A stretch of 64,000 bases of DNA from the NCBI GenBank assembly GCA_021736985.1, contig JAIPEW010000001.1, positions 80,239-144,238 of the forward strand, in the 5' to 3' direction. The notes beneath the pieces are model-generated. The model saw nothing but the letters and a program-made list of their open reading frames with translations. It ran no database searches and was not told where the DNA came from. Source of the stretch: Clostridiales bacterium. GTDB taxonomy: Bacteria > Bacillota > Desulfotomaculia > Desulfotomaculales > VENG01. Made by a program: the position numbers and the translations under genes. Shown one piece after another: positions 963 to 41,979 of the stretch (its first letter is position 1; every line of letters starts with the position of its first letter).

Positions 963-1202
963 CCTGAAAACTACGGCCAGGGCCGGGGGATTTCCGGAAG
1001 GTAGCGGAGTCTGGGTGCGCTGCATAGCCCGTCAAATCTCGAAACCCCGGCTGCTAAGGGCGTGAAAAACTTGATATGTACTATCATTGAGCGGGTATCT
1101 AAAACATACTTTATGCTCCCAGTAAAAATACGAAGTCTCCTGGAGGAAACCACCGGACCTCCACCCAGCCGTCAGAAGAGTTTTCATGCTCCGTTGTGAG
1201 CC
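963..1202 (+). repeat. family A composite intergenic repeat, copy A1 (L module 963-1034, unique core, R module 1164-1202)
   Basis: L module CCTGAAAACTACGGCCAGGGCCGGGGGATTTCCGGAAGGTAGCGGAGTCTGGGTGCGCTGCATAGCCCGTCA recurs at 1234, 14048 and 41760; R module CCCAGCCGTCAGAAGAGTTTTCATGCTCCGTTGTGAGC recurs at 4400, 7943, 14205, 24311 and 41935. Confidence 0.9.
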
Positions 1203-1233
1203 CCAGGCTCGTGGGGGGGTAATCAGAAAACGT

Positions 1234-1295
1234 CCTGAAAATTATGGCCAGGACCGGGGGATTTCCGGAAGGTAGCGGATTCTGGACCCGCAGCG
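1234..1295 (+). repeat. family A solo L module (copy A2)
   Basis: CCTGAAAATTATGGCCAGGACCGGGGGATTTCCGGAAGGTAGCGGATTCTGG is a near-identical direct repeat of 963-1014, 270 bp downstream; it ends 8 nt before the ATG at 1303. Confidence 0.9.
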
Positions 1296-1302
1296 TTTTA
1301 GC

Positions 1303-1794
1303 ATGAGGACAATGAGGGTGAATAGTTTGTGTCTAAAGAATCAACGTGGTTTTACATTAATAGAAGTACTGGCTTCTTTAACCATTCTTGTTTTATTGAC
1401 AGCTGCTGCGCTGCAAGTATACCAGCACGGCCTGCTGAGCTGGAAAGAAGAAGAAAAAGTTTTAAATGTACAGGATAACCTGCGCATCAGCATGGACCGC
1501 ATGGCACGGGAAATTCGCCAGGCCAGGTCACTGGATTCTTCCAGCAGTACGAGCAGGGTTATTATTTATGATACGGGAAATCAAAAAATAGTGTATTCCA
1601 TAGAAGATAATACCCTGTACCGCAAGGCAGGTAGCAGCGTAAAACAGCCCGTTGCAGGAAGTATAAGCTGCTTGAGTTTTGAATACGGTCCAGGAAATCT
1701 TGTAACTATAACTGCTGCCGGAAAAACAAAAGAATTAGAAGAAATCACTTATACCACGGCAGTATGCATAAGAACGGGCAGCGAGGATATATAA
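1303..1794 (+). CDS. prepilin-type N-terminal cleavage/methylation domain protein (PilW-like minor pilin)
   Basis: 163-aa ORF; KNQRGFTLIEVLASLTILVLL prepilin motif. Confidence 0.65.
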   Translation: MRTMRVNSLCLKNQRGFTLIEVLASLTILVLLTAAALQVYQHGLLSWKEEEKVLNVQDNLRISMDRMAREIRQARSLDSSSSTSRVIIYDTGNQKIVYSIEDNTLYRKAGSSVKQPVAGSISCLSFEYGPGNLVTITAAGKTKELEEITYTTAVCIRTGSEDI

Positions 1795-2205
1795 ATGTGC
1801 GTAGAAAAAAATAACAGGGGACAGGCGATTATACTGGTAATGGTAATCATTGTGCTGCTTTTAACAGTAAGTATAACTTGTTTATCCCTCTGTAAAAGCC
1901 AGGAAAAGACTGTTATTTACCAGAGAGAAAAAGTACAGGCTTACTATAATGCTGACTCGGGGATAGAAAGGGTTGTGTCCCGGCTGAAAAAAGACCCCGG
2001 GTGGGCAGAAGAAGTGCCGGGTTATCTTGTTACCTTTTACAAAGATGACAAAATGATTGTAAAAGTAAGAAAAGAAGAAACAGAACTTTTTATTCGCTCT
2101 ACGGGGCGCTGCAGCCGCTGCAAAAAAAACCTGGAAGCTTGTATGAAACTGGATCCTCTAAAAGTATTATCCTGGAAAGAAAAATATCCTGTACTGCCCG
2201 ATTAG
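1795..2205 (+). CDS. hypothetical pilus-associated protein (PilX-like N-terminal anchor)
   Basis: 136-aa ORF abutting the previous stop; N-terminal NNRGQAIILVMVIIVLLLTV hydrophobic helix; pilin operon context. Confidence 0.4.
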   Translation: MCVEKNNRGQAIILVMVIIVLLLTVSITCLSLCKSQEKTVIYQREKVQAYYNADSGIERVVSRLKKDPGWAEEVPGYLVTFYKDDKMIVKVRKEETELFIRSTGRCSRCKKNLEACMKLDPLKVLSWKEKYPVLPD

Positions 2206-2232
2206 TGAGTATAGTAATGGGAGAGGTCTGGT

Positions 2233-3207
2233 TTGCTGAATTTTAATTTGAAATTGCTATTGAATGGTTATACACGTACTGCAATTGATGTAGGTAGCAG
2301 TCAGCTCAAAGTTGCACAGGTAAAACTGATAAAAGGAGTTCCCCGGGTATCATATCTCTATAAAATACCTGTTCCAGGTGAAATGTTCGAAGCTGGATTT
2401 AACCCGGAAATATTAACTTCTCTGCTGCTGCAGGTGAAAGAAAATAGCAATATTAAAATGCAAAATGTAATCAGCTGTATTCGGGACAGCAGGGTTGTAA
2501 CCCGCTGTATCAAGATACCTGTAATGCCTTATAAAGAATTAAAAAAAGCTGTGTTCTGGGAAGCAAAAAAAGTTATCCCTCTTCCATTAGATAATATGGT
2601 GATAGATTTTGCACAGCTCAATTATGACTCCAGGGAAAGTAAGCAAAACATATTACTGGGTGCAGCTCCTGCCAGCATCGTATATGATTTTCACGGGGCA
2701 TTTAAACAGGTAAATTTTAAACTGGATGCTCTGGACCTGCAGGCTCTGGCATTGTGGCGCGTGTTTACTTTGATACTAAATAACATGCCGGAAGTTTTTG
2801 CAGTTGCTGATATAGGGGTTTCGGCCACTCATATGATATTTATAAAAAAAGGTAATTTAAAGTATACGCGCAGTTTTAATAATGGTAGTACAAAATTATA
2901 TATGCATCCAAAAAGTGAAACCAGTGAGAACGCATTTTCACCAGGAACAAAAGAAATAGTAAAAGAACTGCACCGCTCGCTGGAATTTTATACAGAGCGG
3001 GAGAAGGAACCAGTGCAAAAATTGATTATTACTGGCAGTTGCAGCAATATTAACGGGTTTGCTTCTTATTTGTCGTGTGAACTGGGTTTTGAAGTAGAAA
3101 CAGGAAGCCTTGAGCAGTTAAGCAGAAATGGAGAATATATTGATCCTGTATTTATAACTGCAATAGGGCTTGCCGTGCGGGAGATGATAACCAGTGCCCA
3201 GAATTAA
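2233..3207 (+). CDS. pilM: type IV pilus assembly protein PilM
   Basis: 324-aa actin/FtsA-like fold protein (IDVGSSQLKVAQV, ADIGVSATHM); TTG start after GGGAGAGG; followed by pilN/pilO-like genes. Confidence 0.8.
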   Translation: MLNFNLKLLLNGYTRTAIDVGSSQLKVAQVKLIKGVPRVSYLYKIPVPGEMFEAGFNPEILTSLLLQVKENSNIKMQNVISCIRDSRVVTRCIKIPVMPYKELKKAVFWEAKKVIPLPLDNMVIDFAQLNYDSRESKQNILLGAAPASIVYDFHGAFKQVNFKLDALDLQALALWRVFTLILNNMPEVFAVADIGVSATHMIFIKKGNLKYTRSFNNGSTKLYMHPKSETSENAFSPGTKEIVKELHRSLEFYTEREKEPVQKLIITGSCSNINGFASYLSCELGFEVETGSLEQLSRNGEYIDPVFITAIGLAVREMITSAQN

Positions 3208-3793
3208 TATGCTGCCCCGGGATTTGAAGTCCGGTCTGGCCGGCCGGCGTACACTCCGGTTTTTTTTTATTTCTTTATTAATTTTACTTTTTCTTATATA
3301 CTGCAGTTTTGCATATCATTATTTCTATATGCAGAGAGAACTGAATAAAGTTAACAAAGAATTAAAAATAATGACACCTCGTTTCCAGGAATTCAAAAAA
3401 TTACAGCAGCAGGGAAATGAAATAGATGCGAGATTAACCGGTTTAAATAATTTAATTAGACAAAGAAAAAAATGGTCCCCTGTTTTAGCTGGTATAAAAA
3501 GTGTGATACCAGGAGATATTCAGTTAACCCGGTTGAAGATACACAGTAGAAATAATATTGAAAAGGACAGGGAAAATACAGCAGCGCAAGCTAAAAGTAA
3601 TTATCCAAATGCGGTGACATTGGAAGGCGGCTCGCAAAGTGTGCCTTCTATAGGTGTTCTGCTGAAAAGATTAAATGCACTTGAATATTTTAACAGGGTA
3701 GAGCTGAATAAACTTCAGGGTGAAAAAAATATAGAATTTAGCATTACTGCTCATGTTGAGAAGATTAAGGAAGTGCCGGAAAATGAAAATTAA
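3194..3793 (+). CDS. pilN: type IV pilus assembly protein PilN
   Basis: 199 aa; N-terminal INMLP motif, single TM, then coiled-coil region, as in PilN; overlaps the pilM stop. Confidence 0.7.
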   Translation: MPRINMLPRDLKSGLAGRRTLRFFFISLLILLFLIYCSFAYHYFYMQRELNKVNKELKIMTPRFQEFKKLQQQGNEIDARLTGLNNLIRQRKKWSPVLAGIKSVIPGDIQLTRLKIHSRNNIEKDRENTAAQAKSNYPNAVTLEGGSQSVPSIGVLLKRLNALEYFNRVELNKLQGEKNIEFSITAHVEKIKEVPENEN

Positions 3794-4331
3794 CCTGGCT
3801 AAAAGAGAAAAGTACTTGATTATTGCAGCAGCTTTAGCGTTAATACTTTATATAGTAAGCAATATTATTTTTTTTCCTCATTGCAGGGCATATTCTGCGA
3901 TGAAAAGCAAGTTAGAAAATGCCCGCACAAAAAAGGAGTTATATACTAAAGTGTGCTTGTCCGTGGAAGAAGAAAAAAACAGGGTAAGAAATGCTAGTAA
4001 GAAGTTTAATACAATAAAAACAAATTATTTTCCCGTTATACAAAAAGGCAGCATGCTTGTTGATGTAGCCCTGCTGGCTGATAAAAAGGAAGTATCTATA
4101 ACATATTTGCAGCCCGGGGAACTGGTGAAAAATAAATATTGTTTTGAGCTGCCGGTAGAGATAAAAGTAAGAGGTGCAAATGAAAAAGTGCTGGGTTATA
4201 TTAATAGCCTGGAAGAACTTGTGCCTTTATCAAACTTATGCGAGATAGATTCCCTGGTGATAGAGCCCGGGCAAAATAAATACGAGAATGTAACAGCACA
4301 ATTTATTATAATTTATTATAGTTTAACTTAA
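3783..4331 (+). CDS. pilO: type IV pilus assembly protein PilO-like
   Basis: ATG at 3783 (MKINLAKREKYLIIAAALALILYI) inside track ORF 3753..4331; single TM plus coiled coil; position after pilN. Confidence 0.55.
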   Translation: MKINLAKREKYLIIAAALALILYIVSNIIFFPHCRAYSAMKSKLENARTKKELYTKVCLSVEEEKNRVRNASKKFNTIKTNYFPVIQKGSMLVDVALLADKKEVSITYLQPGELVKNKYCFELPVEIKVRGANEKVLGYINSLEELVPLSNLCEIDSLVIEPGQNKYENVTAQFIIIYYSLT

Positions 4332-4360
4332 GAATTTGTAGTTTAAAAGCCTTAACATTG

Positions 4361-4447
4361 GCCGGTGGATTTCCGGACGGAGTTTCCTGGAGTAAACCAC
4401 CGGTTTCCCAATCAGCTGTCAGAAGCCTTTTATACTTTGTTGTGAGC
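4361..4447 (+). repeat. family A short copy (A5: truncated L module fused to R module)
   Basis: GCCGGTGGATTTCCGGACGG...AAACCACCGGTTTCCCAATCAGCTGTCAGAAGCCTTTTATACTTTGTTGTGAGC; CCGGTGG/CCACCGG can pair; 104 nt upstream of tldD. Confidence 0.85.
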
Positions 4448-4550
4448 AATATTTAGCAATGAAATATTCAAAAGAATTAATTTTTTTTTGTATAGTTAAT
4501 ATAATTAAAGCAGAAATTATTGGTATAAAAGAAATAAAAATGATATTATT

Positions 4551-5975
4551 GTGGATGGAAATTTGCAGACTTGGAGGCGAGAATACTTGATAGATAAACA
4601 AGTTCTTGAAGAAGTTCTTGATACTGTTTATACCGGGGGAGTCCATTTTGCAGATGTTTTCGTAGAAAATAGGAAAGCTACGGGAATAAGTTGTGAAAAA
4701 GGTAAAATAGAGCGTGTACATACCGGTGTTGACACAGGTGCTGGAATAAGGGTTGTTTCCGGGGATTCTACTTCGTATGCATATACCAATGATTTAACCC
4801 GGGAAGGATTAATGGAAGCAGCTAAAATTGCCGCTTCAGAAAAAAATGATAAAAAGAATCTTTCTGTTAACCTTACGAAAGTAGAACCGTCAGTTAGTCT
4901 TGATATTGAAAAAATGCCTGAACAAATAAATACAGGGGATAAAGTTTCTGTAGTGCAGGCCGGAGATAGTGCAGCGCGGGAAGCAGGAGGAGACGTTATA
5001 AGGCAGGTTATGGTAGTTTTCGGTGATGTAGTACAGGGTATTGTAATTGCAAACAGCAAAGGGGACTATATTGAAGATGAGAGGGTTCGCACCCGCTACA
5101 TGGTTCAGGCTGTTGCAGCAGAAGGAGAAATAATACAAACCGGGTATGAGCCAGTAGGCGGTTACTGTGGTTTTGAATTATTGAACATGTTTTCTCCGGA
5201 AGAAGTTGGTAGAAAAGCAGCCCGCAGGGCCCGGGCAATGCTCGAAGCACGCCCTGCCCCCGCAGGTAAAATGCCCGTGGTTTTATCCTCCGAGGCAGGT
5301 GGTACTATGATTCATGAAGCTTGCGGACACGGTCTTGAGGCAGACCTGGTCCAGAAGGGGATATCAGTATATGCCGGTAAAATAGGCCAGAAGGTAGCGT
5401 CAGAAAAAGTTACCGTGGTTGATGATCCGACTTTAAAAGGCAAGTATGGTTCTTACCGTTTTGACGATGAAGGTGTGAAGGCTCGCCCGGTTACCTTAAT
5501 AGAGAACGGAATATTAAAAGATTACATGTATGACCGTTTAACTGCCCGCAAGGAAGACAGGGAAAGCAACGGTCACGGAAGGCGCGAATCTTACCAGGAT
5601 AAGCCTATTCCGCGCATGGGAAATACTTATATAGTACCGGGCAGGGATGATCCGGAAAAAATGATAGAAGAAGTAAATAAGGGGTTATTAGTTAAAAAAA
5701 TGGGCGGGGGACAAGTAGATACTACAACGGGAGATTTTGTATTTGATGTGGCAGAAGGTTATCTAATCGAGAACGGGACAGTGGGGCCCATGGTACGTGG
5801 TGCTACACTAACCGGTAACGGTCCCGAGGTATTGCAAAAAGTTTCCATGGTAGGAAAAGATCTTGGTTTTACTATTGGAACATGCGGTAAGGACGGCCAG
5901 GGAGTACCTGTAAGCGATGCTCAACCCACCATGGCTGTAGAAGAATTGGTTGTAGGTGGCACCGGGCATGACTAA
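4551..5975 (+). CDS. tldD: metalloprotease TldD
   Basis: 474 aa; HEACGHGLEAD zinc-binding motif and overall TldD/PmbA family architecture. Confidence 0.85.
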   Translation: MDGNLQTWRREYLIDKQVLEEVLDTVYTGGVHFADVFVENRKATGISCEKGKIERVHTGVDTGAGIRVVSGDSTSYAYTNDLTREGLMEAAKIAASEKNDKKNLSVNLTKVEPSVSLDIEKMPEQINTGDKVSVVQAGDSAAREAGGDVIRQVMVVFGDVVQGIVIANSKGDYIEDERVRTRYMVQAVAAEGEIIQTGYEPVGGYCGFELLNMFSPEEVGRKAARRARAMLEARPAPAGKMPVVLSSEAGGTMIHEACGHGLEADLVQKGISVYAGKIGQKVASEKVTVVDDPTLKGKYGSYRFDDEGVKARPVTLIENGILKDYMYDRLTARKEDRESNGHGRRESYQDKPIPRMGNTYIVPGRDDPEKMIEEVNKGLLVKKMGGGQVDTTTGDFVFDVAEGYLIENGTVGPMVRGATLTGNGPEVLQKVSMVGKDLGFTIGTCGKDGQGVPVSDAQPTMAVEELVVGGTGHD

Positions 5976-7363
5976 TGCAAGTTGGGCTCGTATACTATGT
6001 ATTTATTCTTGCTGTTCTTTTTAGCTTTATAAAGTGCCTGGTCAGAGTTGTTCAGCAGTTCTTTAGCTGAACCTGCATCTTCAGGAAATGTAGCTACGCC
6101 CAGGCTAACAGTTAGATTTCCGCTGGGCTGGTATTCTTGAAAGGGAAAGGGGTGATATTCAACATTGCGCTGTATTTTATGTGCTGCATGTATTGCCCCG
6201 TCTTTATTAGTTTCAGGTAGTAATACAGTAAATTCCTCACCGCCGTACCTGGATACTATGTCAGATTCCCGGGTGGTGGAAACCAATATGCCGGCCAGCT
6301 CCCTTAAAACATTGTCTCCAGCAGGATGACCGTTAGAATCATTGTAAGGCTTGAAATTATCTATATCCAGGAATAAAAGTGAAAATTGTTTATTATATCT
6401 TGTAGCGTTATCTACTTCTGATTTAAGGCGTTCAATGAAATACCCGTGGTTGTAAAGTCCTGTAAGCCTGTCTCGTATGGATTCCTCATAGGCTTTATTA
6501 TAATTATGTACCATTTTATCATGCAGCTGCTTTTTTCTAAGTAGTGAATTAACCCTCAGGTTGAGCTCTTTTTTGTTAATAGGTTTTATTAAGTAATCAT
6601 CTGCCCCGTGTTCCAGGCCTTTTAACTTGTCAGACATGCTTTCAAGACTTGTAATCATTAAAACTGGTATATTAGCAGTCCCGGTATCTGATTTCAATTG
6701 TTTACATACTTTAAAGCCATTTATATCCGGTAAAACAATATCCAGTATAATCAAGTCAAAGTTATTAGTACTGGCCAGGTTAAGTGCTTCACTGCCGCTG
6801 TAGATAGGTATAAATTCCATGGTTTCTTCACCAAGGTTTTTGCGAATAATTAAATTCTGCAGTTTGCTGTCTTCTATTATCAGGACGCGGGGTTTGGGTG
6901 TTTGAAATATAATATTGGAATCCATTGTTTCGCTGTGCTCTTCGGTCTTGTTTTCCTGTGTATTGTCGTAATCCTTAAGCTGCAGCTGCATGTGTCGTAT
7001 TTCTAGAATCGATTTTGTTCTTGATAATATTTCTAGATAATTTACGGGCTTATCCAGAATTTCATCCACGATATTAATATTTTCATCTTGTGCTAAATTA
7101 TTGGCAGAACCCATGAAGATGACGGGAATGTCACTTGATTTGTGTTCTCTTAACACTTGAAGAATAAGTTCAAGTTCATCAAAGGCATCATCTAAAACAA
7201 GTAAATCCAGCATGTTATAAAATAATAATTCTTTAATACAATTTATATTGCTGGAAATCATTACACGGTATCCTGTTTTATTCAGAGTTTCGTGCAGTGA
7301 ATTATTATCGGCAACTTTATTGCCAATAATAACTATTGTGCTTTTATTCAAAAAAGCTCGCAC
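5972..7363 (-). CDS. response regulator with two receiver domains and a GGDEF diguanylate cyclase domain (PleD-like)
   Basis: 463 aa; second REC has RVLIIEDS...DLIILDIVLPDINGF; C-terminal RYGGEEF active-site motif; exact start uncertain (GTG 7363 or TTG 7351). Confidence 0.85.
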   Translation of the reverse strand: MRAFLNKSTIVIIGNKVADNNSLHETLNKTGYRVMISSNINCIKELLFYNMLDLLVLDDAFDELELILQVLREHKSSDIPVIFMGSANNLAQDENINIVDEILDKPVNYLEILSRTKSILEIRHMQLQLKDYDNTQENKTEEHSETMDSNIIFQTPKPRVLIIEDSKLQNLIIRKNLGEETMEFIPIYSGSEALNLASTNNFDLIILDIVLPDINGFKVCKQLKSDTGTANIPVLMITSLESMSDKLKGLEHGADDYLIKPINKKELNLRVNSLLRKKQLHDKMVHNYNKAYEESIRDRLTGLYNHGYFIERLKSEVDNATRYNKQFSLLFLDIDNFKPYNDSNGHPAGDNVLRELAGILVSTTRESDIVSRYGGEEFTVLLPETNKDGAIHAAHKIQRNVEYHPFPFQEYQPSGNLTVSLGVATFPEDAGSAKELLNNSDQALYKAKKNSKNKYIVYEPNLH

Positions 7364-7451
7364 CTTCCAGTTACATGATTAATTACATTTTATATTATTC
7401 TAGTATGATTATGTAAAAATTACAACTAAATTTAGTTATAAATTATAATAA

Positions 7452-7480
7452 AATAAAAAAGACCGGTTTAAAAACCGGTT
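7452..7480 (-). terminator. rho-independent terminator of the DUF3243 gene
   Basis: ACCGGTTT-AA-AAACCGGT hairpin (7462-7479), followed on the minus strand by a T-run. Confidence 0.65.
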
Positions 7481-7487
7481 TAAAAAT

Positions 7488-7751: not shown

Positions 7752-7942
7752 TATATCACCTCTTTTTTACAACCATGCTTTGCATTTTAATATATTTTTG
7801 CCGTGTTTTTGGATATTATACTAATTTTTTTTAACGTATAAATTGTTTATTATGGTTTTTACTTCTTATAAAGGAATACTTTTATTTTAAAAGAATCATA
7901 CTAATATGACGTCATGATTAAATTCAAAGTTTTGTTGATCTC

Positions 7943-7983
7943 ACCCAGCTATTAGAAGAAGTTTTCATGTTTTATAGTGAGCA
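7943..7983 (+). repeat. family A solo R module (copy R6)
   Basis: CACCCAGCTATTAGAAGAAGTTTTCATGTTTTATAGTGAGC, 39 nt upstream of the pmbA start. Confidence 0.8.
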
Positions 7984-8021
7984 AAAAACTTGCGGGGATT
8001 TAATCGAAAGGAGGAATAATA

Positions 8022-13924: not shown

Positions 13925-14047
13925 TCGGTTCAAATCGCTCTCTCCGGGTCAACGGCAAGTTTAATAGTTTTCATTTTAACCGGAGGATCGTGTGCATTTA
14001 ATCAGGAGTCTCTGGTTTAAACTGTAGTTATAACCTGCAAACTCAAA

Positions 14048-14246
14048 GGGCCGGGAGATTTCCGGAAGGCAGCGGAGTCTGGGTGCGCTGCATAGCCCGT
14101 CATTTGCGAAGTGTGATGTGGGAGGTGGGAAGTGTGACAATTTGGCGTAGACTTTTTCTTTTTCCCATCTTTAATTTCCCACTTCTTTGCCCGTTGCCCG
14201 GTCCTTCACTAAACTGTTAGAAGAGTTTTCATACTTTTTTGTAAGC
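14048..14246 (+). repeat. family A full-length copy A3 (L module, long imperfect hairpin core, R module)
   Basis: 14048-14103 differs from 981-1034 at only a couple of positions; the core CATTTGCGAAGTGTGATGTGGGAGGTGGGAAGTGTGAC...TTTCCCATCTTTAATTTCCCACTTC is shared with 41812-41910; R module ACTGTTAGAAGAGTTTTCATACTTTTTTGTAAGC. Confidence 0.9.
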
Positions 14247-14268
14247 AGATTTCCTGGTTTTAAATTTG

Positions 14269-14301
14269 CCTACCTTAAAAATTTTTAAGGTAGGTTTTTT
14301 T
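14269..14301 (+). terminator. rho-independent terminator
   Basis: CCTACCTTA / TAAGGTAGG stem followed by TTTTTTT. Confidence 0.7.
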
Positions 14302-24211: not shown

Positions 24212-24240
24212 TTTAAAGTAATGTAATGTGTATAAAAAGA

Positions 24241-24285
24241 AACTCCCAGGTTACCGAAACTTCGGTTACTTGGGAGTTTTTATCT
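24241..24285 (+). terminator. rho-independent terminator after folD
   Basis: 18-nt arms AACTCCCAGGTTACCGAA / TTCGGTTACTTGGGAGTT (two mismatches), then TTTTAT. Confidence 0.7.
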
Positions 24286-24310
24286 TTAAGTAAAATACTT
24301 TGAGCAAAAC

Positions 24311-24360
24311 TACCGGCCCCGACCTGGCTGTCAGAAGAATTTTAATTCTTAGTTGTGAGA
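24311..24360 (+). repeat. family A solo R module (copy R7)
   Basis: TACCGGCCCCGACCTGGCTGTCAGAAGAATTTTAATTCTTAGTTGTGAGA; 104 nt upstream of xseA. Confidence 0.8.
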
Positions 24361-24463
24361 AAATAGCTAATGGCGGTTAATTCGAAAAGTTGTAACAGCT
24401 CACTGTTTATCCTGTATAAGCGAATTGTGAGCATCAATACGTGGGAGTTTAATTTATTTAAGG

Positions 24464-26974: not shown

Positions 26975-27570
26975 ATATCTTGCATAGGCAAGGACACTGT
27001 ATTCTAGTCAAGACAACCATTCTTGAAGACGGGCCTAAAAATCCGTCAAGGGCACATCGATGAAGTTCCTGGTGCTGGCTGCTGACGCCCAGTTGGGGGT
27101 TGGTACTGGGAGTTAAGAGGGTAGGGCGATCCACAATGGCATGTGGGCGTTGACCCTGCCTTCGCGGAGACCCAAGTGCGTGGAAGCATGTTATCTATGG
27201 CTTGGGATATAAACCTGCACGTGGTCAAAGCTGCGTGTAGCGTAGCCTGCCTTGAGTGGTAGCGGTGGATCCAATGCTATACATTAACAATTACTACCGG
27301 GCCCTGTGTAATTGTTAATGTGCGGTGAAACCGTTATTGCAAAAGAGGCTAGGGAATGGTTTGTTTTGCCGGGGAAAACCCCTAGACAGTATGTGTTTTA
27401 CATGGTAATACGGGAGTTGCAGTACGGACTAAGTGGCAATCTGGCTCCGAGAAATCGGGAATCTTCTTAAAGGGAAACCGCCGCTCTGGCAACAGGCGGT
27501 GAAGGTTTGGGAAAACCTGCCGGACCTTAAGCCGTAATATTTACCCGTATTACGTCCTTGCCTATCATAT
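26975..27570 (+). ncRNA. ole: OLE (ornate, large, extremophilic) RNA
   Basis: ~700-nt gap with no credible ORF; 12-bp closing helix ATAGGCAAGGAC (26984-26995) / GTCCTTGCCTAT (27554-27565); long-range GTAATACGGG (27405-27414) / CCCGTATTAC (27544-27553); several local GC hairpins; canonical ispA-ole-oapA-dxs context. Confidence 0.75.
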
Positions 27571-27602
27571 ACATATATTAACCTCTAGTATGAGGTGATT
27601 TC

Positions 27603-28181
27603 GTGGCAAATAATAAATCAACTGTTTCTGGTTGTTATATATTAATCGTTGGCATTATTTCTTTTTTTCTGGCAGCCTTTTTTTACGTTGTTTCACATTT
27701 AATATCACAGTATATTAACAATATACTGCTTTCTCTTATTTTTTTATTAATTGTTATCATACTGGGGATAATATCTGATCTTATAGGAACATCTGCTGCT
27801 GCTGGATCTGAAACCATGTTTCATTCCAGGGCATCTAAAAGAATACCAGGAGCCAGGGAAGGCGTATATCTTGTTCGAAACGCGGATAGAGTAGCTAATA
27901 TAGCTAACGACGTTATAGGGGATATAGCAGGTACTGTAAGCGGCGCTATTGGCATTTCCCTGGTTTTTCAGATTGTCTCTAGCTATCCTCAAGTAAACGA
28001 GATTTTTGTTACCATGATTACTACTGCTTTAATAGCATCTCTTACTGTGGGTGGAAAGGCCTTTGGTAAAAAACTGGCCTTGAGCAGGGGAAATGATATT
28101 ATATTTGTTGTTGGGCAAATAATAGCATATTTGAGGAATTTTAAATTTATTAACGTTTTTTTAAACCGGCAGGGTAAGTAA
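27603..28181 (+). CDS. oapA: OLE-associated protein A (small polytopic membrane protein)
   Basis: 192-aa ORF with GTG start after GAGGTGA; about four hydrophobic segments; lies between the OLE RNA and dxs, as described for oapA. Confidence 0.7.
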   Translation: MANNKSTVSGCYILIVGIISFFLAAFFYVVSHLISQYINNILLSLIFLLIVIILGIISDLIGTSAAAGSETMFHSRASKRIPGAREGVYLVRNADRVANIANDVIGDIAGTVSGAIGISLVFQIVSSYPQVNEIFVTMITTALIASLTVGGKAFGKKLALSRGNDIIFVVGQIIAYLRNFKFINVFLNRQGK

Positions 28182-34689: not shown

Positions 34690-34713
34690 ACCCGCATTCA
34701 GCGGGTTTTTTTA
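34690..34713 (+). terminator. rho-independent terminator after recN
   Basis: ACCCGC-ATTCA-GCGGGT followed by TTTTTTT. Confidence 0.8.
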
Positions 34714-34897
34714 TTTGTGGAAAACAAACAAGAAACTAACATATTAATGCAGCCCTGATTAGTGCCGAGTTTGGTAAACAACGGTTAATATGGATGTAAT
34801 ATTAGTTTAGTGCTCAGGTCAATTTAATAGTACGCTTTTATATTTTAAAAATTTTTAACTGCAGTCATAAAATTTAATTCTTCGAGGGGGGATTGGC

Positions 34898-36211
34898 CTG
34901 AGCACAAAGAAAAAATTAAGAAAAAAATGTTTATACCTGACATTATTTTTTCCCGTTTTTTTTCTTTTATCCGGACAAATAATAAGCTTTATAGCATTTC
35001 CGTCAAACCAAAACATGGTTGTAGGTGATACATTTGAGCCTAAATTTTATATACCCCATGCTGTAATGGAAAATATTAGTTATAAAATTAATTCAAATAA
35101 CGATAAGTTGTTAGAAGACTTTTCTTTTTCTCCTGGAGATGCTGTTGTTGCTGAAACTCCGGGAAAGCTGCACATGGAGATTAAACTCTTTGGGTTAATC
35201 CCCATACGTGAGATGGTAGTTAATGTTATACCCCGGCTGCGTGTTGTTCCATGCGGGCAATCTATAGGGGTACTTTTACACACTAACGGTGTTGTAGTCG
35301 TGGGGATGGCTGGTATAAGTATTAACAGGGAAAAAGTTAATCCTGCTGCTGAAGCTGGTATAAACGCAGGGGATGTAATTATAGAAGCTAACGGAAAAAA
35401 AATAAACAGTGATGTCCAGCTCAGGAAGATAGTAGACCAGGCAGGTGTTAATAAAAAGAAAATTAAAGTAAAAATAAAAAGAAATAATAAAATCTTACAA
35501 AAGAATATATCACCGGTTTATTGCAAAGATACCCGCAGCTACAGGATAGGACTTTTTATACGTGATACAGCTGCCGGGGTAGGCACGCTTACTTTTTATC
35601 ATCCTGAGAGTCAAACTTACGGCGCACTTGGTCACATGATTTCTGATATGAACACATCCAGCAGTACAGATTTAAAAGACGGGTGTATTGTTGGAGCTGA
35701 AATACAGGGAGTACATCCTGGTAAAAAAGGACAACCCGGAGAAAAAATAGGGCTTTTTAATAAAGAAACTTTGCAAGGAAGTATAGAAAAAAACACCAAG
35801 TTTGGTATTTTCGGAAAATTAGAAAAACCTGCTGCAAATTCTTATTATCCCGACCCGATTCCTGTTGCGCTAAATGATGAAATAAAAAAAGGACCTGCTG
35901 AAATTATGACTGTTATAGATGGAAATGATGTGGAAAAATATGATATTGAAATACAACAGGTAGTTCCACAATCTTTTTCAGACGGCAAGGGATTAATAAT
36001 AAAAATTACAGACAAAGATTTGCTGCGGCGAACTGGTGGAATAGTACAGGGAATGAGCGGAAGTCCTATAATTCAAAATAACAAGCTGATAGGTGCAGTT
36101 ACTCATGTTTTCATAAATGACCCCAAGAGAGGATACGGCGTAATGGCCCAATGGATGCTGCAGAAATATAATATTTTTACACAAAATAATAATTTAAACA
36201 AGGTATCTTGA
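34898..36211 (+). CDS. spoIVB: SpoIVB peptidase (S55), start codon uncertain
   Basis: PDZ region plus S55 motifs GTLTFYHPESQTYGALGH and GMSGSPIIQNNKLIGAVTH; the frame is open from 34871 and encodes a signal-anchor (KKKLRKKCLYLTLFFPVFFLLSG) upstream of the first ATG (35015); GAGGGGGG at 34884-34891. Confidence 0.85.
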   Translation: MSTKKKLRKKCLYLTLFFPVFFLLSGQIISFIAFPSNQNMVVGDTFEPKFYIPHAVMENISYKINSNNDKLLEDFSFSPGDAVVAETPGKLHMEIKLFGLIPIREMVVNVIPRLRVVPCGQSIGVLLHTNGVVVVGMAGISINREKVNPAAEAGINAGDVIIEANGKKINSDVQLRKIVDQAGVNKKKIKVKIKRNNKILQKNISPVYCKDTRSYRIGLFIRDTAAGVGTLTFYHPESQTYGALGHMISDMNTSSSTDLKDGCIVGAEIQGVHPGKKGQPGEKIGLFNKETLQGSIEKNTKFGIFGKLEKPAANSYYPDPIPVALNDEIKKGPAEIMTVIDGNDVEKYDIEIQQVVPQSFSDGKGLIIKITDKDLLRRTGGIVQGMSGSPIIQNNKLIGAVTHVFINDPKRGYGVMAQWMLQKYNIFTQNNNLNKVS

Positions 36212-36232
36212 GGCATTGCGCCTCAATTTTTC
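36208..36232 (+). terminator. rho-independent terminator after spoIVB
   Basis: TTGAGGC-ATTGC-GCCTCAA followed by TTTTT; overlaps the stop codon. Confidence 0.75.
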
Positions 36233-36368
36233 TGTTATATAAATATTAGATGATTTCCAAAAAATTACTAAAATATTAGGAGGAGATTTCCTGTCTCCGT
36301 CGAATGGTCAGAATAAAGATAATTGTAGATAAAAAAAAGAGAAAAATTATTTAGGAGGCGGAAATCTA

Positions 36369-37139
36369 ATGGTGGTAAAAGCTAATAAACTTATTATTGC
36401 TGATGATAATAAGGAATTTTGTGAACTTTTACAAGAATTTTTAAACCAGCAGGAAGACATTGAATTATGCGGCATTGCTTATAATGGTAATGAAGCATTG
36501 AAGCTCATTGAAGAACATAATCCTGAAATTGTCGTACTGGATATTATTATGCCCCACCTGGATGGAATTGGTGTGTTAGAAAAACTGGCCGGGGGAGATT
36601 ATAACCCGCGCCCCAAAGTAATAATGCTTACAGCTTTCGGACAAGAGAGCGTGACCCAGAGGGCGGTAGAATTAGGTGCTGATTATTATATCCTGAAGCC
36701 CTTTGATTTCAGTGTATTAGCTACCAGAATAAGGCAACTAACAGAAGGAGTTAAAGCTAATCACTATATTGCAGATGATAAACCTAAAAACATGGACGTA
36801 GCTGTTACCAATATAATACATGAAATGGGTGTACCGGCGCATATAAAAGGATATCATTATTTGCGCGATGCTATCATGATGGTTATTGAAGAAGTTAACT
36901 TATTAGGTGCGGTAACCAAAGAGCTATACCCGCTTATTGCTCAAAAGTATCATACAACTCCCAGCAGGGTGGAAAGAGCTATCAGGCATGCCATTGAACT
37001 AGCCTGGGATCGCGGTAACGTGGACTTAATGACAAAATTCTTTGGTTATACTATAAATCTCGACCGCGGGAAACCTACAAACAGCGAGTTTATCGCCATG
37101 GTTGCAGATAAATTGAGAATTGAAGTAAAAGCTGGATAA
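36369..37139 (+). CDS. spo0A: sporulation master regulator Spo0A
   Basis: 256 aa; REC domain (ADDNKEF...[12 protein letters not shown]) and the Spo0A-specific [15 protein letters not shown] helix. Confidence 0.95.
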
Positions 37140-37184
37140 AATAAACCGGATATCTTATGAAAATTTATGACACTATAATAAAAA

Positions 37185-37212
37185 ACCTGACTTTTAACAG
37201 TCAGGTTTTTTT
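37185..37212 (+). terminator. rho-independent terminator after spo0A
   Basis: ACCTGAC-TTTTAACA-GTCAGGT followed by TTTTTTT. Confidence 0.8.
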
Positions 37213-37304
37213 ATCTTGTTTTTCTTGACTACTATAGTTTAAAATGATAAAAGATTCTAAAGGTGTTATTAAGAATATATTAACAATTTAAAAGAGGTGT
37301 AAAC

Positions 37305-38426
37305 ATGCACCTTAAAGGCATTGCAAAATATGATGTTAAAACCAAGGATCTGGTAAAGAGATTAGAATCGGGAGATATTGCAATAATTAATCATTCTGCA
37401 CTGGATGAAGTAGCTGCCCTGTCTTTAATAGAGAAAAAAATAAAGGCAGTAATTAATGTTAGTGTTTCACTCAGTAGAAACTATCCTAATCCCGGGCCCC
37501 TCCAGTTAATACAAGCCGGTATACCTGTGCTTGATAATGCCGGTGAAGAGATCTTAGAAAAAATTAAAGAAAACCAGGTTATAGAGATCGTTGATGAAAA
37601 TGTTTTAGCTAGCGGAGAATTTATTGGCAGCGGCGATATTTTAAACGAAAAATATGTTAAATTAAAGATGCAAGAGGCCCGGTACGGCATGGATGACCTG
37701 TTGTCAGGTTTTGTTAGTAATACTTTGGATTACGCGCATACAGAAATCGGCCTTATATCGGGAGATTACCCGGTACCTGAAATCAAAACAAGTTTTAAAG
37801 GTAAACATGCCCTTATTGTAGTTAGAGGGAAAAATTATAAGGGCGATTTAATGGCAATAAAATCCTATGTAAAAGAAATGAAGCCCGTGTTGATAGGTGT
37901 AGACGGCGGGGCTGACGCTCTCATGGAATTCGGGTTTAAACCAGATATCATTGTCGGAGATATGGACAGTGTCAGTGATAAAACCCTGAGATGCGGTGCC
38001 GAAATAGTGGTTCATGCTTATGCCGACGGGAAAGCTCCTGGTTTAGAAAGAATTTACGATATGAAACTGTATGCAGTAACTTACCCGGCTCCCGGGACAA
38101 GTGAAGATATAGCCATGTTAATGGCTTATGACTATGCTGCAGAGCTCATTGTAGCGGTAGGAACTCATTCAAACATGATGGATTTTCTGGAAAAGGGCCG
38201 CAAGGGAATGGCAAGTACTTTTTTAGTGCGTATGAAGGTAGGTTCTAACCTTGTAGATGCCCGTGGAGTAAGCCAGTTATACCGGGATAAGCTGAAGTTT
38301 AAGTACCTGGCCCAGATATTTCTAGCTGCCCTTTTGCCGGTAGGTGTTATAGTAGTTGTCTCACCTTCCATACGTCAAACACTCAGGCTGCTTTTTATAC
38401 AGTTCCGGATGCTTGTAGGTATTTAA
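37305..38426 (+). CDS. steA: SteA-like putative cytokinetic-ring protein (thiamine pyrophosphokinase-like domain, C-terminal TM)
   Basis: 373 aa; GVDGGADAL...IIVGDMDS TPK-like motif; C-terminal hydrophobic segment; followed by a steB-like gene. Confidence 0.6.
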   Translation: MHLKGIAKYDVKTKDLVKRLESGDIAIINHSALDEVAALSLIEKKIKAVINVSVSLSRNYPNPGPLQLIQAGIPVLDNAGEEILEKIKENQVIEIVDENVLASGEFIGSGDILNEKYVKLKMQEARYGMDDLLSGFVSNTLDYAHTEIGLISGDYPVPEIKTSFKGKHALIVVRGKNYKGDLMAIKSYVKEMKPVLIGVDGGADALMEFGFKPDIIVGDMDSVSDKTLRCGAEIVVHAYADGKAPGLERIYDMKLYAVTYPAPGTSEDIAMLMAYDYAAELIVAVGTHSNMMDFLEKGRKGMASTFLVRMKVGSNLVDARGVSQLYRDKLKFKYLAQIFLAALLPVGVIVVVSPSIRQTLRLLFIQFRMLVGI

Positions 38427-38445
38427 CAGACTTGGAGGAATTGAC

Positions 38446-39330
38446 TTGATAGATCTAAAGTATCATATAGCTTCGCTGGTTGCTGTGTTTCTTGCCCTGG
38501 GCATTGGAATTCTTATTGGAAGTACAATGCTGGGCAATGATACCCTGGTGGAATACCAGAAACAGGTAACTGATAACCTGGAAAACCAGCTAAAAGAGCT
38601 GCGGCACAAAAATGACTCTATTCGGGCAGATGTAGCAGACTTAAAGATGAATTTGCAAATCCAAAAAGATTTTAATTCCGGTGTAATGCCGGCATTGATC
38701 AACAATGAATTAAAAGGCTTAAATTTAGCTGTAGTGGAAACCAGTGGGTATTATTTTCCCCATAAGCTTACAGATACCTTGAAAATGTCCGGTGCAAATG
38801 TAACTTCTATCAGCAGTTTTTTAAACTTTTCTCCTGGTAACATCAATAAGATTTTAAAGAAAATTAATTATGAGGAAAAAAACAAAGCAAAAGAAGATTT
38901 TTTAGCATTTGCTGCACGCAAAATTACCAGGGAGATAATCAGCGGAGATATGGATTTAGTTAACACGTTAACCGGGGCCAATGTTATTCAAGTGCAGGGA
39001 AAATATGGAAAACATTTAGACGGGGTAATACTTGTAGGCGGCAGCCAGGATAAAGATTCGTCGCGTTTTTCCCGGTTGGATAAAAACCTGATTGATGTGT
39101 TTCAATCCAACGAGATACCTGTATACGGAACTGAAGAAACATCTGCCGGGTATTCTTATATAAAAAAATACCAGGAGCATGGTTTAAAAGTTACTGTTGA
39201 TAATATTAATACTGTGCCGGGACGTACGGCCTTGATTTTTTCTATTAGCGGTGATGCCGGTTATTACGGAGTGAAGTCCAGTGCCCGGCGTTTAATGCCT
39301 GAATTAAATGCTTCTCCCGGGAGTGAATAA
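38446..39330 (+). CDS. copper-transporter (MctB/DUF3186)-family membrane-anchored protein, SteB-like
   Basis: 294 aa; N-terminal MIDLKYHIASLVAVFLALGIGILIG anchor then coiled coil, typical of this family (from memory). Confidence 0.5.
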   Translation: MIDLKYHIASLVAVFLALGIGILIGSTMLGNDTLVEYQKQVTDNLENQLKELRHKNDSIRADVADLKMNLQIQKDFNSGVMPALINNELKGLNLAVVETSGYYFPHKLTDTLKMSGANVTSISSFLNFSPGNINKILKKINYEEKNKAKEDFLAFAARKITREIISGDMDLVNTLTGANVIQVQGKYGKHLDGVILVGGSQDKDSSRFSRLDKNLIDVFQSNEIPVYGTEETSAGYSYIKKYQEHGLKVTVDNINTVPGRTALIFSISGDAGYYGVKSSARRLMPELNASPGSE

Positions 39331-39332
39331 AA

Positions 39333-40004
39333 ATGAAAAAAGTCTCTGTTATAATTCCAGCTTATAATGAGACATGCAGGATAGCAAGTACTGTTTCAGC
39401 AGTAAAATCAATACCAGAAGTTGGAGAAGTACTGGTAGTGGATGACGGGTCCAGTGACAATACTGCTGCTGAAGCAGAAAGAGCAGGGGCCAGTGTAATA
39501 TTGATGCCTGTAAACAGTGGTAAAGGTGCTGCATTAACCAGGGGTGCTTATAGTGTAAAATTTGATACGATAGCTCTATTAGATGGTGATCTCGGGCCTT
39601 CTGCAGAAGAGGGACGTTTATTAATGCTGCCGGTACTGGAAAATAGCGTGGATATGACTATTGCCGGATTTCCATCTCCGAAAAAGGGTGGATTCGGGTT
39701 GGTAAAGGGGTTTGCTGCAGCAGTAATCAAGATATTTACCGGGCTGAAAGTAAAGTCTCCCCTGTCCGGACAAAGAGTAATGACCGGGGAAGTATTAGAA
39801 AAAGTACTCCCTTTTGCCTCGGGATACGGGGTTGAATTGGATTTAACATTAAAAGCTGGCCGTATGGGTTATAAGATTAAAGAGGTCCCCGTAAAAATGC
39901 AGCATCATGAAACCGGCAGAGATATTAAAGGGTTTATTCACAGGGGAAAACAATTTGTTCATATATTAAGGGTCCTGGCCTGCACGAGCTGGCAGAGGGC
40001 TTAG
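39333..40004 (+). CDS. family 2 glycosyltransferase
   Basis: 223 aa; VSVIIPAYNE, VVDDGSSDNT, LDGDL (DxD) motifs. Confidence 0.75.
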   Translation: MKKVSVIIPAYNETCRIASTVSAVKSIPEVGEVLVVDDGSSDNTAAEAERAGASVILMPVNSGKGAALTRGAYSVKFDTIALLDGDLGPSAEEGRLLMLPVLENSVDMTIAGFPSPKKGGFGLVKGFAAAVIKIFTGLKVKSPLSGQRVMTGEVLEKVLPFASGYGVELDLTLKAGRMGYKIKEVPVKMQHHETGRDIKGFIHRGKQFVHILRVLACTSWQRA

Positions 40005-40020
40005 AGGGTAGTGAGGGCCG

Positions 40021-40866
40021 GTGTGGTATAATAATGATTATACATTAACAATATGCGGAAGCCTGCTGCTTGTTTTCTCTATTACAGTTGTTATTAGGAA
40101 AAGCATTTTAAACATGATATATGAATCAGGGTTTGTAAGGAAAAATTTTCAAAACAAAGAAATACCGCTCGCTGCTGGTATTATTTTTCCTATCGCTCTT
40201 TTTGCGGCTTATTTATTATTGTTAAAGATACTACCTTCTTTGCAGCAGTCTAAATCATACATTTTTCTCCTGTTAATTATTTTATCTTCTTTTTTGGGGT
40301 TGATCGATGATTTTTTAGGCTGCAGGGAGACGTCTGGATTAAAAGGTCACCTGGGAGAATTATTTAAAGGGCGCATGACTACCGGGGGATTTAAGGCAGT
40401 CTTTGGTATGCTGCTTGCTGTATTTGTAGTGGTTTTAACGGGCCCAATTGCTGCAGTGCCTGTTAATGCTCTTTTGATTGCCCTTTTTACTAACGCGGAA
40501 AATCTGCTGGACCTGCGTCCAGGCCGGGCCGGTAAAGTTTTCATTCTCATTGCTTTACTTATTGGCATTGTCGGGTGGGGTAGTTTCGAGTTAATACTGT
40601 TGAGCATGCTGCTGGGCAGTTTCCTGGCATATTTTCCCCTGGACTTGAAGGCAAAAGCCATGATGGGGGATACCGGTTCTAATGCGCTGGGGGCGGCACT
40701 GGGAGTTTCCTGTGTATGGATACTTTCTCCCCCGGCAAGGATCGTAATTCTACTATTATTAATTTCTTTTCATTTATTTACAGAGAGATATTCTTTAACC
40801 TGTTTTATTTCTAAAAACCGCTTTTTAAGTTACCTGGATTCACTGGGTAGAGAAAAAATGAAATAA
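40021..40866 (+). CDS. MraY/WecA-family (GT4) polyprenyl-phosphate sugar-phosphate transferase
   Basis: 281-aa polytopic protein; LIDDFLG, NAENLLDLRPG and MMGDTGSNALG motifs. Confidence 0.7.
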   Translation: MWYNNDYTLTICGSLLLVFSITVVIRKSILNMIYESGFVRKNFQNKEIPLAAGIIFPIALFAAYLLLLKILPSLQQSKSYIFLLLIILSSFLGLIDDFLGCRETSGLKGHLGELFKGRMTTGGFKAVFGMLLAVFVVVLTGPIAAVPVNALLIALFTNAENLLDLRPGRAGKVFILIALLIGIVGWGSFELILLSMLLGSFLAYFPLDLKAKAMMGDTGSNALGAALGVSCVWILSPPARIVILLLLISFHLFTERYSLTCFISKNRFLSYLDSLGREKMK

Positions 40867-40961
40867 TTTTTATTTTAAGACTAAAACAGGTTTTTATCAT
40901 AAAGTTGTAGAATCTTATATTTTATACTAAATATCTATCTTTTTAAGGCGGTAAGTTACAT

Positions 40962-41642
40962 ATGACAGAATTTGCACCGCGTATAAATATTTTTTGCGGT
41001 AATCTTGGAAGTGGAAAAACTGAAATAGCGATAAATTATGCTGTTTCCTTGTATGAAAAAGGTAAACAGGTAGGATTAGTAGATATAGATGTTGTAAACC
41101 CTTACTTTAGGTCAAGAATAGTTAGAGACAATATGAAGCAAAGGGGTATCGATGTAATTTGCCCTGCAGGTGAATTGGCTGCTGCAGATGTGCCTGCGCT
41201 CCCACCTTCTATTTTTAAAGTACTGCAAAACCCCGAAATTACCGGGGTTTTTGATGTGGGCGGGGATGATATAGGTGCTGTTGTCCTGGGAAGGTTTAAA
41301 CCTTATTTCCAGGAAGGATTGTATAACTTATATTTTGTAGTTAATACAAGCCGCCCTTTTACCGGAGATGTAAACGGTATAATTAATTACTTGAAATCAA
41401 TAGAGGAAGCTTCACGGTTAAAGGTTACGGCGTTTGTAAATAATTCAAACCTTGGTTTCCAGACTGATATAGATACTGTATTAGAAGGTCAGGAAAAGCT
41501 TAAAGAAGCAGCTGCTAAAACAGGTATTCCACTTGCTTTTACCGCATCATTAAAACACCTGGTTCCCAGTTTAGAAAGTAAATTGGATGTGCCGGTATTT
41601 CCGCTGGAGATTTACATGGTCCCGCCGTGGCAGGTAGTTTGA
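40962..41642 (+). CDS. P-loop NTPase of unknown function (MinD/ParA-like)
   Basis: 226 aa; Walker A GNLGSGKTE near the N-terminus, DVGGDD. Confidence 0.5.
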   Translation: MTEFAPRINIFCGNLGSGKTEIAINYAVSLYEKGKQVGLVDIDVVNPYFRSRIVRDNMKQRGIDVICPAGELAAADVPALPPSIFKVLQNPEITGVFDVGGDDIGAVVLGRFKPYFQEGLYNLYFVVNTSRPFTGDVNGIINYLKSIEEASRLKVTAFVNNSNLGFQTDIDTVLEGQEKLKEAAAKTGIPLAFTASLKHLVPSLESKLDVPVFPLEIYMVPPWQVV

Positions 41643-41646
41643 AGTA

Positions 41647-41690
41647 AAGGCCTATTGAGCGCGGACGATTTTGTGTGCCGGAGTAGGGAG
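41647..41690 (+). repeat. family B repeat, short copy B1
   Basis: AAGGCCTATTGAGCGCGGACGATTTTGTGTGCCGGAGTAGGGAG matches the two ends of 55402-55527 with the middle deleted. Confidence 0.8.
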
Positions 41691-41759
41691 TACAACTGGT
41701 TTGGCAGCCAATAGAGCAGATGTTCGTAGGTATGATCTTAAACGCAGAGCAATATGAAA

Positions 41760-41979
41760 GGGCGGGGGATTTCCGGAAGGTTAGCGGAGTCTGGGTGCGT
41801 TGGATAGCCTGTCATTTGCGAAGTGTGATGTGGAAGGTGGGAAGTGTGACAATTTGAGGAAGTCTGCTGCGTAGACTTTTTCTTTTTCCCACCTCTAATT
41901 TCCCACTTCTCCCCTCTGCCCTTTGCCCCGGCCCTCCGCCTAGCTCTGTCAAAAGAGTTGTCATTTTTCGTTGTGAGCC
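41760..41979 (+). repeat. family A full-length copy A4
   Basis: GGGCGGGGGATTTCCGGAAGGTTAGCGGAGTCTGGGTGCGTTGGATAGCCTGTCATTTGCGAAGTGTGATGTGG... is colinear with 14048-14246 and ends in R module CTCTGTCAAAAGAGTTGTCATTTTTCGTTGTGAGC; 56 nt upstream of korD. Confidence 0.9.

Follow-up and report, generated by a model that had tools for sequence, protein, structure and literature searches.

L and R modules in the window

We analyzed a 64-kb stretch of contig JAIPEW010000001.1 (GCA_021736985.1, Clostridiales bacterium), here called the window, in which two short intergenic modules, L and R, recur close to pilin genes, tldD, pmbA, the spoIIIA genes, xseA, and kor-like genes. We refer to these repeats as family A. 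The genes of the window lie nearly all on the + strand, and the elements are richer in G+C (48 to 53%) than the window as a whole (40%). Together with 10 kb upstream and 7.6 kb downstream (17.6 kb of flanks), ~82 kb of the source genome was read. Over 21 kb, the window was 99.995% identical to contig JAIPEY010000001.1 (GCA_021736925.1), part of a metagenome-assembled genome (MAG) labelled "Clostridiales bacterium." The closest relatives by SpoIIIAA sequence (66 to 69% identity) were all metagenomic, with named Desulfotomaculia next (~60%).

Exact and near-exact L and R consensus strings matched at the places listed in Table 1 and gave 0 matches in 100 shuffles. A repeat scan recovered the L core five times (981, 1252, 4360, 14049, and 41760) and the R core four times. 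An nhmmer profile of L returned exactly five matches (979-1034, 1250-1296, 4358-4380, 14046-14102, and 41757-41814; E values from 1e-4 to 1e-19), and one of R returned exactly six (1140-1201, 4387-4448, 7939-7983, 14197-14247, 24300-24360, and 41926-41978; 2e-10 to 3e-18). All of these matches lay on the + strand, and the next best match on either strand of the window had an E value above 0.1. The pattern searches, repeat scan, and profiles agree that the seven copies reported in an initial annotation are real, and the profiles detected nothing else in the window; the 10 kb upstream and 7.6 kb downstream held no further copies. Inspection of each copy also bore out the sorting into L-core-R composites, an L/R fusion, a solo L, and solo R copies. 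Only three of the L copies fit the statement that they differ at few positions; overall, identity among copies was 72 to 95% for L and 61 to 77% for R.

The initial annotation saw no terminal inverted repeats. However, the start of L, GGCCGG(G/T)GGATTTCC (~15 nt), is an inverted repeat of the inner part of R, GGAAACCACCGG(A/T)CC, and the two close a long hairpin, P1, of 13 to 19 bp in all four complete copies. The remaining ~45 nt of R (..CAGCTGTCAGAAGAGTTTTCAT..GTTGTGAGC) extend as a tail 3' of P1. A leader-like stretch precedes the P1 5' arm in two copies, those at 963 and 1234, which have ~30 extra nucleotides upstream of L in common (949-977 and 1220-1248). The cores enclosed by P1 are not conserved: copy 963 carries one type, copies 14048 and 41760 carry another that is G.U-rich, and the fusion at 4361 has almost none. 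Since the ends are conserved while the cores have been replaced (two unrelated cores and one core-less fusion), the elements appear to be recognized at their ends rather than to act as ligand-binding or catalytic RNA. The solo L and both solo R copies are fragments. Replaceable cores between conserved ends, unrelated neighboring genes, and the many truncated fragments speak against a riboswitch-like or catalytic RNA and fit the earlier view of one repeat family rather than independently evolved riboswitches. When the units were read by eye, stop codons broke all frames on both strands, and no conserved frame was opened by the ATG inside R (minus strand) or by the ATG of the leader hairpin described below.

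The copies occupy varied positions relative to genes. Composite copy 1 begins at the stop codon of a pilin-like gene; the 5' part of its L is the P1 5' arm, and its R provides the 3' arm, GGAAACCACCGGACC, followed by a tail ...GTCAGAAGAGTTTTCATGCTCCGTTGTGAGC. The solo L stands in tandem directly after it, ~30 nt before a pilin gene start, and both copies are flanked by two pilin-like genes that belong to one cluster. The L/R fusion separates a PilO-like gene from tldD, genes that overlap at locus L082 of a relative. Composite copy 2 sits between the stop of an oxidoreductase gene (13924) and a terminator-like hairpin (14268-14295). The solo R before xseA lies 3' of a hairpin (~24240-24282) read by eye as the folD terminator, which a terminator scan did not flag. 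Composite copy 3 ends ~55 nt before a korD-like gene. Inside its core, ~150 nt upstream of the kor-like operon, is a terminator-like hairpin with a T-run (41856-41882, + strand); the 5' arm of this hairpin has been lost in the sister copy at 14048.

The window also holds hairpin elements of a second type, B, which have P1 ends as in family A (GGCCGGTGG../..CCACCGGCC) around a different core. These common ends make family A one branch of a superfamily with a minus-strand member in the window, at 59602-59745, which was weakly matched by the B-core profile of a relative (E = 0.004). The initial annotation placed all copies in one orientation; this stands for the L and R matches but not for the superfamily.

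Table 1. Family A and B-type elements in the 64-kb window
Element	Positions	Strand	Composition and setting
Composite copy 1	949-1202	+	Leader-like stretch 949-977; L 978-1034; core 1035-1139; R 1140-1202
Solo 3'-truncated copy	1220-1296	+	Leader-like stretch and first ~45 nt of L
Short L/R fusion	4358-4448	+	P1 5' arm GGCCGGTGGATTTCC, small internal hairpin, P1 3' arm AAACCACCGG, R tail
Solo R tail	7939-7983	+	Inferred 5' untranslated region of pmbA; 24 nt upstream of ribosome-binding site
Composite copy 2	14046-14247	+	L 14046-14102; G.U-rich hairpin core 14103-14196; R 14197-14247
Solo R with P1 3' arm remnant CTACCGGCCCC	24300-24361	+	~110 nt before xseA
B-type fragment	41645-41707	+	Directly upstream of composite copy 3
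Composite copy 3	41757-41979	+	L 41757-41814; core type as copy 2; R 41926-41979
B-type, complete	55398-55562	+	P1 AAGGCCGTGGTACTC / GAGTTCCACCGGCC; CGGAGTGGAC motif; 3' tail AGCACAAACAAAC
B-type, complete	59602-59745	-	P1 GGCCGGTGGTACT / AGTACTACAGGCC

The two complete B elements are mutually inverted and bracket a 4-kb block encoding a SpoOB-like histidine kinase, a LytTR response regulator, and a sigma-70 region-4 protein. Perfect 29- to 30-bp palindromes (GTGACAAGGGGACGGGGTTGGTGTCAC type) without a T-run stand directly 3' of + strand stop codons at 54974-55036, 60871-60901, and 62864-62926, the second consisting of one arm and, after it, a short partial repeat. Their arm resembles a motif, GTGCACATGGGGACGG (the "alternative tail"), found after many elements in the relative described below; the palindromes may be a REP-like 3'-end hairpin family tied to the same repeat system.

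In agreement with the initial annotation, which had recognized no named RNA family, a search of the window against Rfam at gathering thresholds gave no match on the repeats, and at E ≤ 10 nothing credible appeared on positions 900-1350, on four loci of relatives, or on the array at locus L086 (see below). A likeness to hammerhead or other ribozymes (CUGAGUAG, GUC) was rejected, as the cores mismatch and Rfam is silent. The sole Rfam match at gathering was a full-length OLE (ornate large extremophilic) RNA at 26975-27575 (+ strand; 479.5 bits against RF01071), which is unrelated to the repeat family; a 192-aa open reading frame (ORF) 3' of it (27603-28181) may encode an OLE-associated membrane protein. 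In the GTDB species genomes, a 19-mer of L, GATTTCCGGAAGGNAGCGG, gave 79 matches, all due to chance (at most 33 of the 54 positions of full L), although this pattern is specific to the window lineage and diverged relatives could escape it. A scan of IMG/VR gave six chance matches only, and BLAST against plasmid and phage collections gave none.

Homologous units and their placement in relatives

More than 120 loci, totaling ~1 Mb, were recovered with a gapped pattern made of the blocks common to copy 963 and the elements at L086. They came from a small number of metagenomes representing one relative (hereafter, the relative), which shares 66% SpoIIIAA identity with the window. In these loci we counted at least 102 distinct A-core units, which measure ~197 nt and average ~90% identity between pairs; their A core is homologous to the core of composite copy 1. 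Overall, copy 963 is ~60% identical to the A-type consensus, with which it shares five exact blocks in the same order (GATTTCCGGA, AGCGGAG, AGCCCGTCAAATC, AGGGCGTGAA, and GAGGAAACCACCGG), indicating that the families are homologous and old. The recent spread proposed initially is therefore only part of the history, given also the divergence among R copies.

Each unit in the relative consists of a junction module (TTTTTTCAAGGTAGAC), a GC-rich leader (Ld) hairpin, an optional linker, a long hairpin of A or B type, and an AU-rich tail hairpin, and ends either with the junction module again or with the alternative tail (AGCACAAAAGAAC..), which is also present 3' of the B element of the window. Such units follow one another head to tail in arrays as long as 1.2 kb. 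The Ld hairpin is missing in the window lineage. Homology of the R tail of the window with the T2/T1 tail of the relative (AGAGTTTT(TT)CA...GT(G)AG(A)C) was seen by eye only, and as a profile search came back blank we keep it as tentative. A palindromic repeat of ~45 nt (AATAATTCAAGG...CCTTGAATTATT) often adjoins the relative's arrays (left flanks, e.g., at L105, L124, L130, L138, and L155); TTCAAGG is present both in its arms and in the junction module, pointing to a network of related small repeats in this genome.

Support for a conserved RNA fold beyond P1 was weak. Consensus folding of the A type mildly favored the + strand (-41.4 versus -32.9 for the - strand), but P1 was essentially invariant in the alignment, and the inner helices had only 7 double-change cells of 3,398, mostly from a single window sequence. 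The copies are too alike (90% mean identity) for covariation in the A-type core to be informative. The B-type P1 is more variable: at least six subfamilies have perfectly complementary 16-bp arms that differ at four positions with compensatory changes. Because wobble and mismatch intermediates of this helix occur on both strands, these changes point to hairpin formation in general and not to RNA specifically.

We then considered where the copies lie. With nearly all genes of the window on one strand (+), the reported co-orientation of copies with genes carries no information there. In the relative, between co-directional genes, 43 copies were in sense and 6 in antisense (88% of 49 informative cases). 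Of 119 nonredundant arrays, 42 end within 60 nt of a Shine-Dalgarno (SD) sequence and start codon on the same strand, and others abut terminators or promoters; many arrays end 10 to 60 nt before a ribosome-binding site (RBS) or just before a terminator. Contrary to the initial description of each copy as lying upstream of an operon, copies are found alike in intra-operonic spacers, 5' untranslated regions (UTRs), and 3' UTRs. Their shared context is the inside or edge of transcription units, in sense, and not the front of operons; the copies are probably co-transcribed with their host genes. No informative cases separated the direction of transcription from that of replication, and GC skew was confounded with the coding strand. 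The earlier alternatives of transcribed leader modules or a nonautonomous element with orientation-specific insertion both fit these observations, which include a solo R in the pmbA leader.

This placement could mean that the modules are cis-acting RNA elements under selection in the leaders and trailers of mRNAs, where they would serve as hairpins for stabilization or processing, as attenuators, or as modulators of translation; their spread and retention would then be due to this tuning of expression. In favor of such a role are the sense copies within transcription units and close to RBSs, the strand-asymmetric, G.U-rich hairpin cores, the + strand preference in consensus folding, the terminator-like hairpin inside copy 41760, and retention of the family over deep divergence. 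Common polymorphisms in the predicted stems are also wobble-compatible on the + strand, although this argument is biased because the structure was itself predicted on that strand. However, the genes downstream are functionally unrelated, one core can stand in for another or be lacking, the solo fragments have the appearance of decay products, the few double changes in the A-type structure come mostly from one sequence, and array length is free to vary between strains (see below). On balance, we regard selection for cis-acting regulation as an unlikely primary explanation.

Insertion, turnover, and possible modes of movement

We compared the window with syntenic loci of three relatives, including L082, L083, and L086. 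The spoIIIAE-spoIIIAF junction measures 8 to 13 nt in the window, L082, and L083, whereas L086 holds a 700-nt array of two units there. Excising this array from GAGATA|array|GGAGGG leaves GAGATAGGAGGG, which resembles the uninterrupted junctions of the relatives, most closely that of L083 (GAGATAGGGGAGG). Conversely, the spoIIIAA, xseA, and tldD spacers are 150 to 350 nt longer in the window than in the relatives (upstream of spoIIIAA, 493 versus 138 to 207 nt; upstream of xseA, ~260 versus 105 to 112 nt). Upstream of pmbA, a -10-like box (GAATYATACTAAT; window 7893-7910) and the RBS are conserved in all four lineages (the window and three relatives); the 45-nt solo R between them is present in the window alone and absent from this site in the relatives.

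Arrays also differed among strains. Where flanks were 97 to 100% identical, array lengths were 1,238 versus 319 nt at one site and 749 versus 367 nt at another, the latter difference being one whole B unit between two CAAGGTAGAC junctions. At one site, different strains carried different internal modules. Two further differences concern gene content and order. The window (5972-7363), L082, and L083 retain a GGDEF response-regulator gene that lies between tldD and DUF3243, but this gene is missing in L086, where a 1.2-kb repeat array (1532-2770) takes its place; other strains (L208 and L156 were compared) have an array of 289 to 319 nt at this site, which suggests repeat-associated gene loss. 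In addition, the spoIIIAE-proximal array is followed by argS in L087 (5376-6168) but by spoIIIAF in L086 (13376-14089); the repeats would here mark the site of a rearrangement or, alternatively, a point at which the assembly was joined.

No direct repeats flank the window copies, and no transposase lies near them, as initially stated; the window between 54 and 63 kb, for example, encodes only sigma factors and a LytTR two-component system. In the relative, just TA recurs at unit junctions: it precedes 31 of 41 array-first units (as GGTA, AGTA, GATA, or TATA), and ...CAAGGTA precedes internal units in 51 of 54 cases, but the motif may belong to the element. No multicopy ORF was found in ~1 Mb of the relative's flanking DNA.

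Alternatively, the units may be nonautonomous derivatives of a single-stranded DNA transposon (HUH/Y1, IS200/IS605 type), comparable to PATEs or the REP/RAYT systems. This would be a more specific form of the explanation we prefer (below). Insertion would occur 3' of a short target (approximately RRTA), in one orientation with respect to the replication fork and without inverted terminal repeats or duplications, and head-to-tail arrays would arise because the right end of the element recreates the target. Consistent with this idea, there is no target-site duplication, the ends are asymmetric with hairpins near both (Ld and T2 in the relative), TA or CAAGGTA precedes most units, the spoIIIAE-spoIIIAF insertion can be read as precise, and arrays run head to tail; an 88% sense bias is the gene-strand bias expected were orientation set by replication. 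However, the two end hairpins are unlike one another, whereas IS200/IS605 ends carry similar ones; the window lineage lacks the Ld hairpin altogether; the junction sequence AAGGTAGAC is conserved on both sides and may be part of the module rather than a target; and neither a Y1 transposase nor a multicopy ORF was seen in the ~1 Mb. Moreover, locus L096 holds two copies in opposite orientations only 1.2 kb apart, one between same-strand genes and the other in sense to the single neighboring gene called, which hints at transcription rather than replication as the determinant. We therefore consider a transposon of this class improbable as the source.

A third possibility, which we judge very remote, is that each unit is an independent small RNA gene, the guide or bridge RNA of an RNA-guided recombinase (e.g., IS110), or an orphan TnpB/IscB omega-RNA. 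In its favor, the units are structured sequences of ~200 nt that have conserved ends as well as internal loops, and they lack outer inverted terminal repeats and target-site duplications while inserting in a specific orientation. On the other hand, no promoter or terminator consensus brackets them; Rfam, which includes the HEARO and IS605-orfB families, gave no match; no recombinase, TnpB, or IscB gene adjoins any of more than 130 copies; and comparison of core loops with junction sequences revealed no convincing complementarity by eye.

A mosaic dispersed repeat family and its significance

Taken together, these data lead us to favor, with a probability of roughly 60%, the interpretation that family A consists of lineage-restricted, noncoding, nonautonomous mosaic dispersed repeats of a BOX- or MITE-like kind (MITE, miniature inverted-repeat transposable element), which inserted strand-specifically and were then reshuffled. 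The family is previously undescribed and is neither a riboswitch nor any catalogued RNA. According to this interpretation, the full unit would be a long imperfect hairpin in which the conserved 5' arm at the start of L pairs with the conserved 3' arm in inner R as P1, enclosing a replaceable core and followed by a ~45-nt unpaired to weakly paired tail formed by the rest of R. Units would have entered many intergenic sites strand-specifically and without target duplication, mostly inside transcription units (intra-operonic spacers, 5' UTRs by the RBS, and 3' UTRs before terminators). Recombination between common modules may then have reshuffled, truncated, and amplified them; such reshuffling would explain why composites differ in their cores and why an L/R fusion and solo fragments of either module exist. 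Once in place, copies would be transcribed with their neighbors and modulate them only incidentally, through hairpins and the one terminator-like stem. Their spread presumably depends on an enzyme that acts in trans from a gene elsewhere in the genome and recognizes the conserved ends.

Several observations weigh against this interpretation. Neither the window with its 17.6 kb of flanks nor the ~1 Mb of the relative's loci encodes a mobilizing enzyme or a cognate autonomous insertion sequence (IS); no consistent autonomous copies (leader-to-tail or P1-to-P1 spacing of 0.5 to 4 kb) were found; and comparison of strains revealed only length-variant arrays, with no site empty in one and filled in another. 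Because enzyme, autonomous copy, and empty site were not found, we infer mobility solely from the non-orthologous positions of copies between species. Persistence across family-level divergence, with the exact blocks AGCCCGTCAAATC and AGGGCGTGAA, could instead reflect a selected function. Likewise, the sense bias and RBS proximity could stem from function rather than from the insertion mechanism or purifying selection. Finally, the core shared by copies 14048 and 41760 folds more stably on the + strand (-57 versus -42 and -77 versus -59 kcal/mol, respectively), which hints at selection on the transcript.

More speculatively, the whole superfamily might be an undescribed strand-specific mobile element that enters SD-proximal, AARRTA-like sites within transcription units and adds units head to tail, moved without an IS-like partner by an unrecognized trans-acting system (ssDNA or RNA mediated), and long kept in an uncultured Desulfotomaculia-like clade as transcribed hairpins useful to the host. 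We think that this is rather unlikely.

Among known systems, the BOX elements of Streptococcus pneumoniae and S. suis (boxA-boxB(n)-boxC) are modular intergenic repeats with pairing terminal modules that are co-transcribed and vary between strains, and related species have alternative terminal and internal modules (Croucher et al. 2011, PMC3049150). Like BOX, family A is composite and noncoding, has many dispersed intergenic copies whose conserved 5' and 3' modules pair around a variable interior, and varies in length between strains. The likeness is one of architecture and function, as no sequence resemblance was noticed by eye and no comparison with BOX sequences was run. Unlike BOX, family A has an unrelated hairpin core in place of tandem boxB units and a ~45-nt tail outside the paired ends, and the relative's units add a leader hairpin, whole-unit arrays running head to tail, and a strong sense bias.

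Small noncoding multicopy hairpin repeats also occur in transcribed intergenic regions as ERIC/IRU, Correia/NEMIS, RUP, and bcr1 elements. Family A resembles such MITE- and ERIC-type repeats in being small (45 to 250 nt), noncoding, multicopy, and richer in G+C than its surroundings, with an inverted repeat near its ends that forms a long hairpin. It differs in the absence of target-site duplications, in an inverted repeat that is not terminal at the 3' side, in its orientation bias and mosaic modules, and in that no cognate IS with matching ends was found in the DNA sampled. With PATEs and the REP/BIME-RAYT system, family A shares the lack of outer terminal inverted repeats and duplications, subterminal hairpins, strand-specific insertion, and modules arranged as a mosaic like that of BIMEs; a short target may also lie 5' of the left end. 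However, PATEs have similar left and right subterminal hairpins, whereas those of the relative are dissimilar (GCCGCC-GAAG-GGCGGC on the left and CTAAAAG-TAA-CTTTTAG on the right); REPs and BIMEs are palindromes of 20 to 40 nt in alternating orientation, whereas the units here are much longer (90 to 250 nt) and arrayed head to tail; and the DNA sampled revealed neither a Y1 transposase nor a RAYT gene.

These results add a well-delimited mosaic repeat family to what is known of a lineage of spore-forming anaerobes that is uncultured and poorly sampled. The repeats swell intergenic spacers by 100 to 1,200 nt, part genes that overlap in relatives, and coincide with a missing GGDEF regulator gene and altered gene order in one relative, making them a source of genome plasticity. 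In such MAGs, they probably also lead to broken assemblies and to spurious "novel noncoding RNA" calls. Lastly, their strong sense orientation and proximity to RBSs make them a candidate system in which to ask whether the placement of bacterial dispersed repeats is set by mechanism or by selection.

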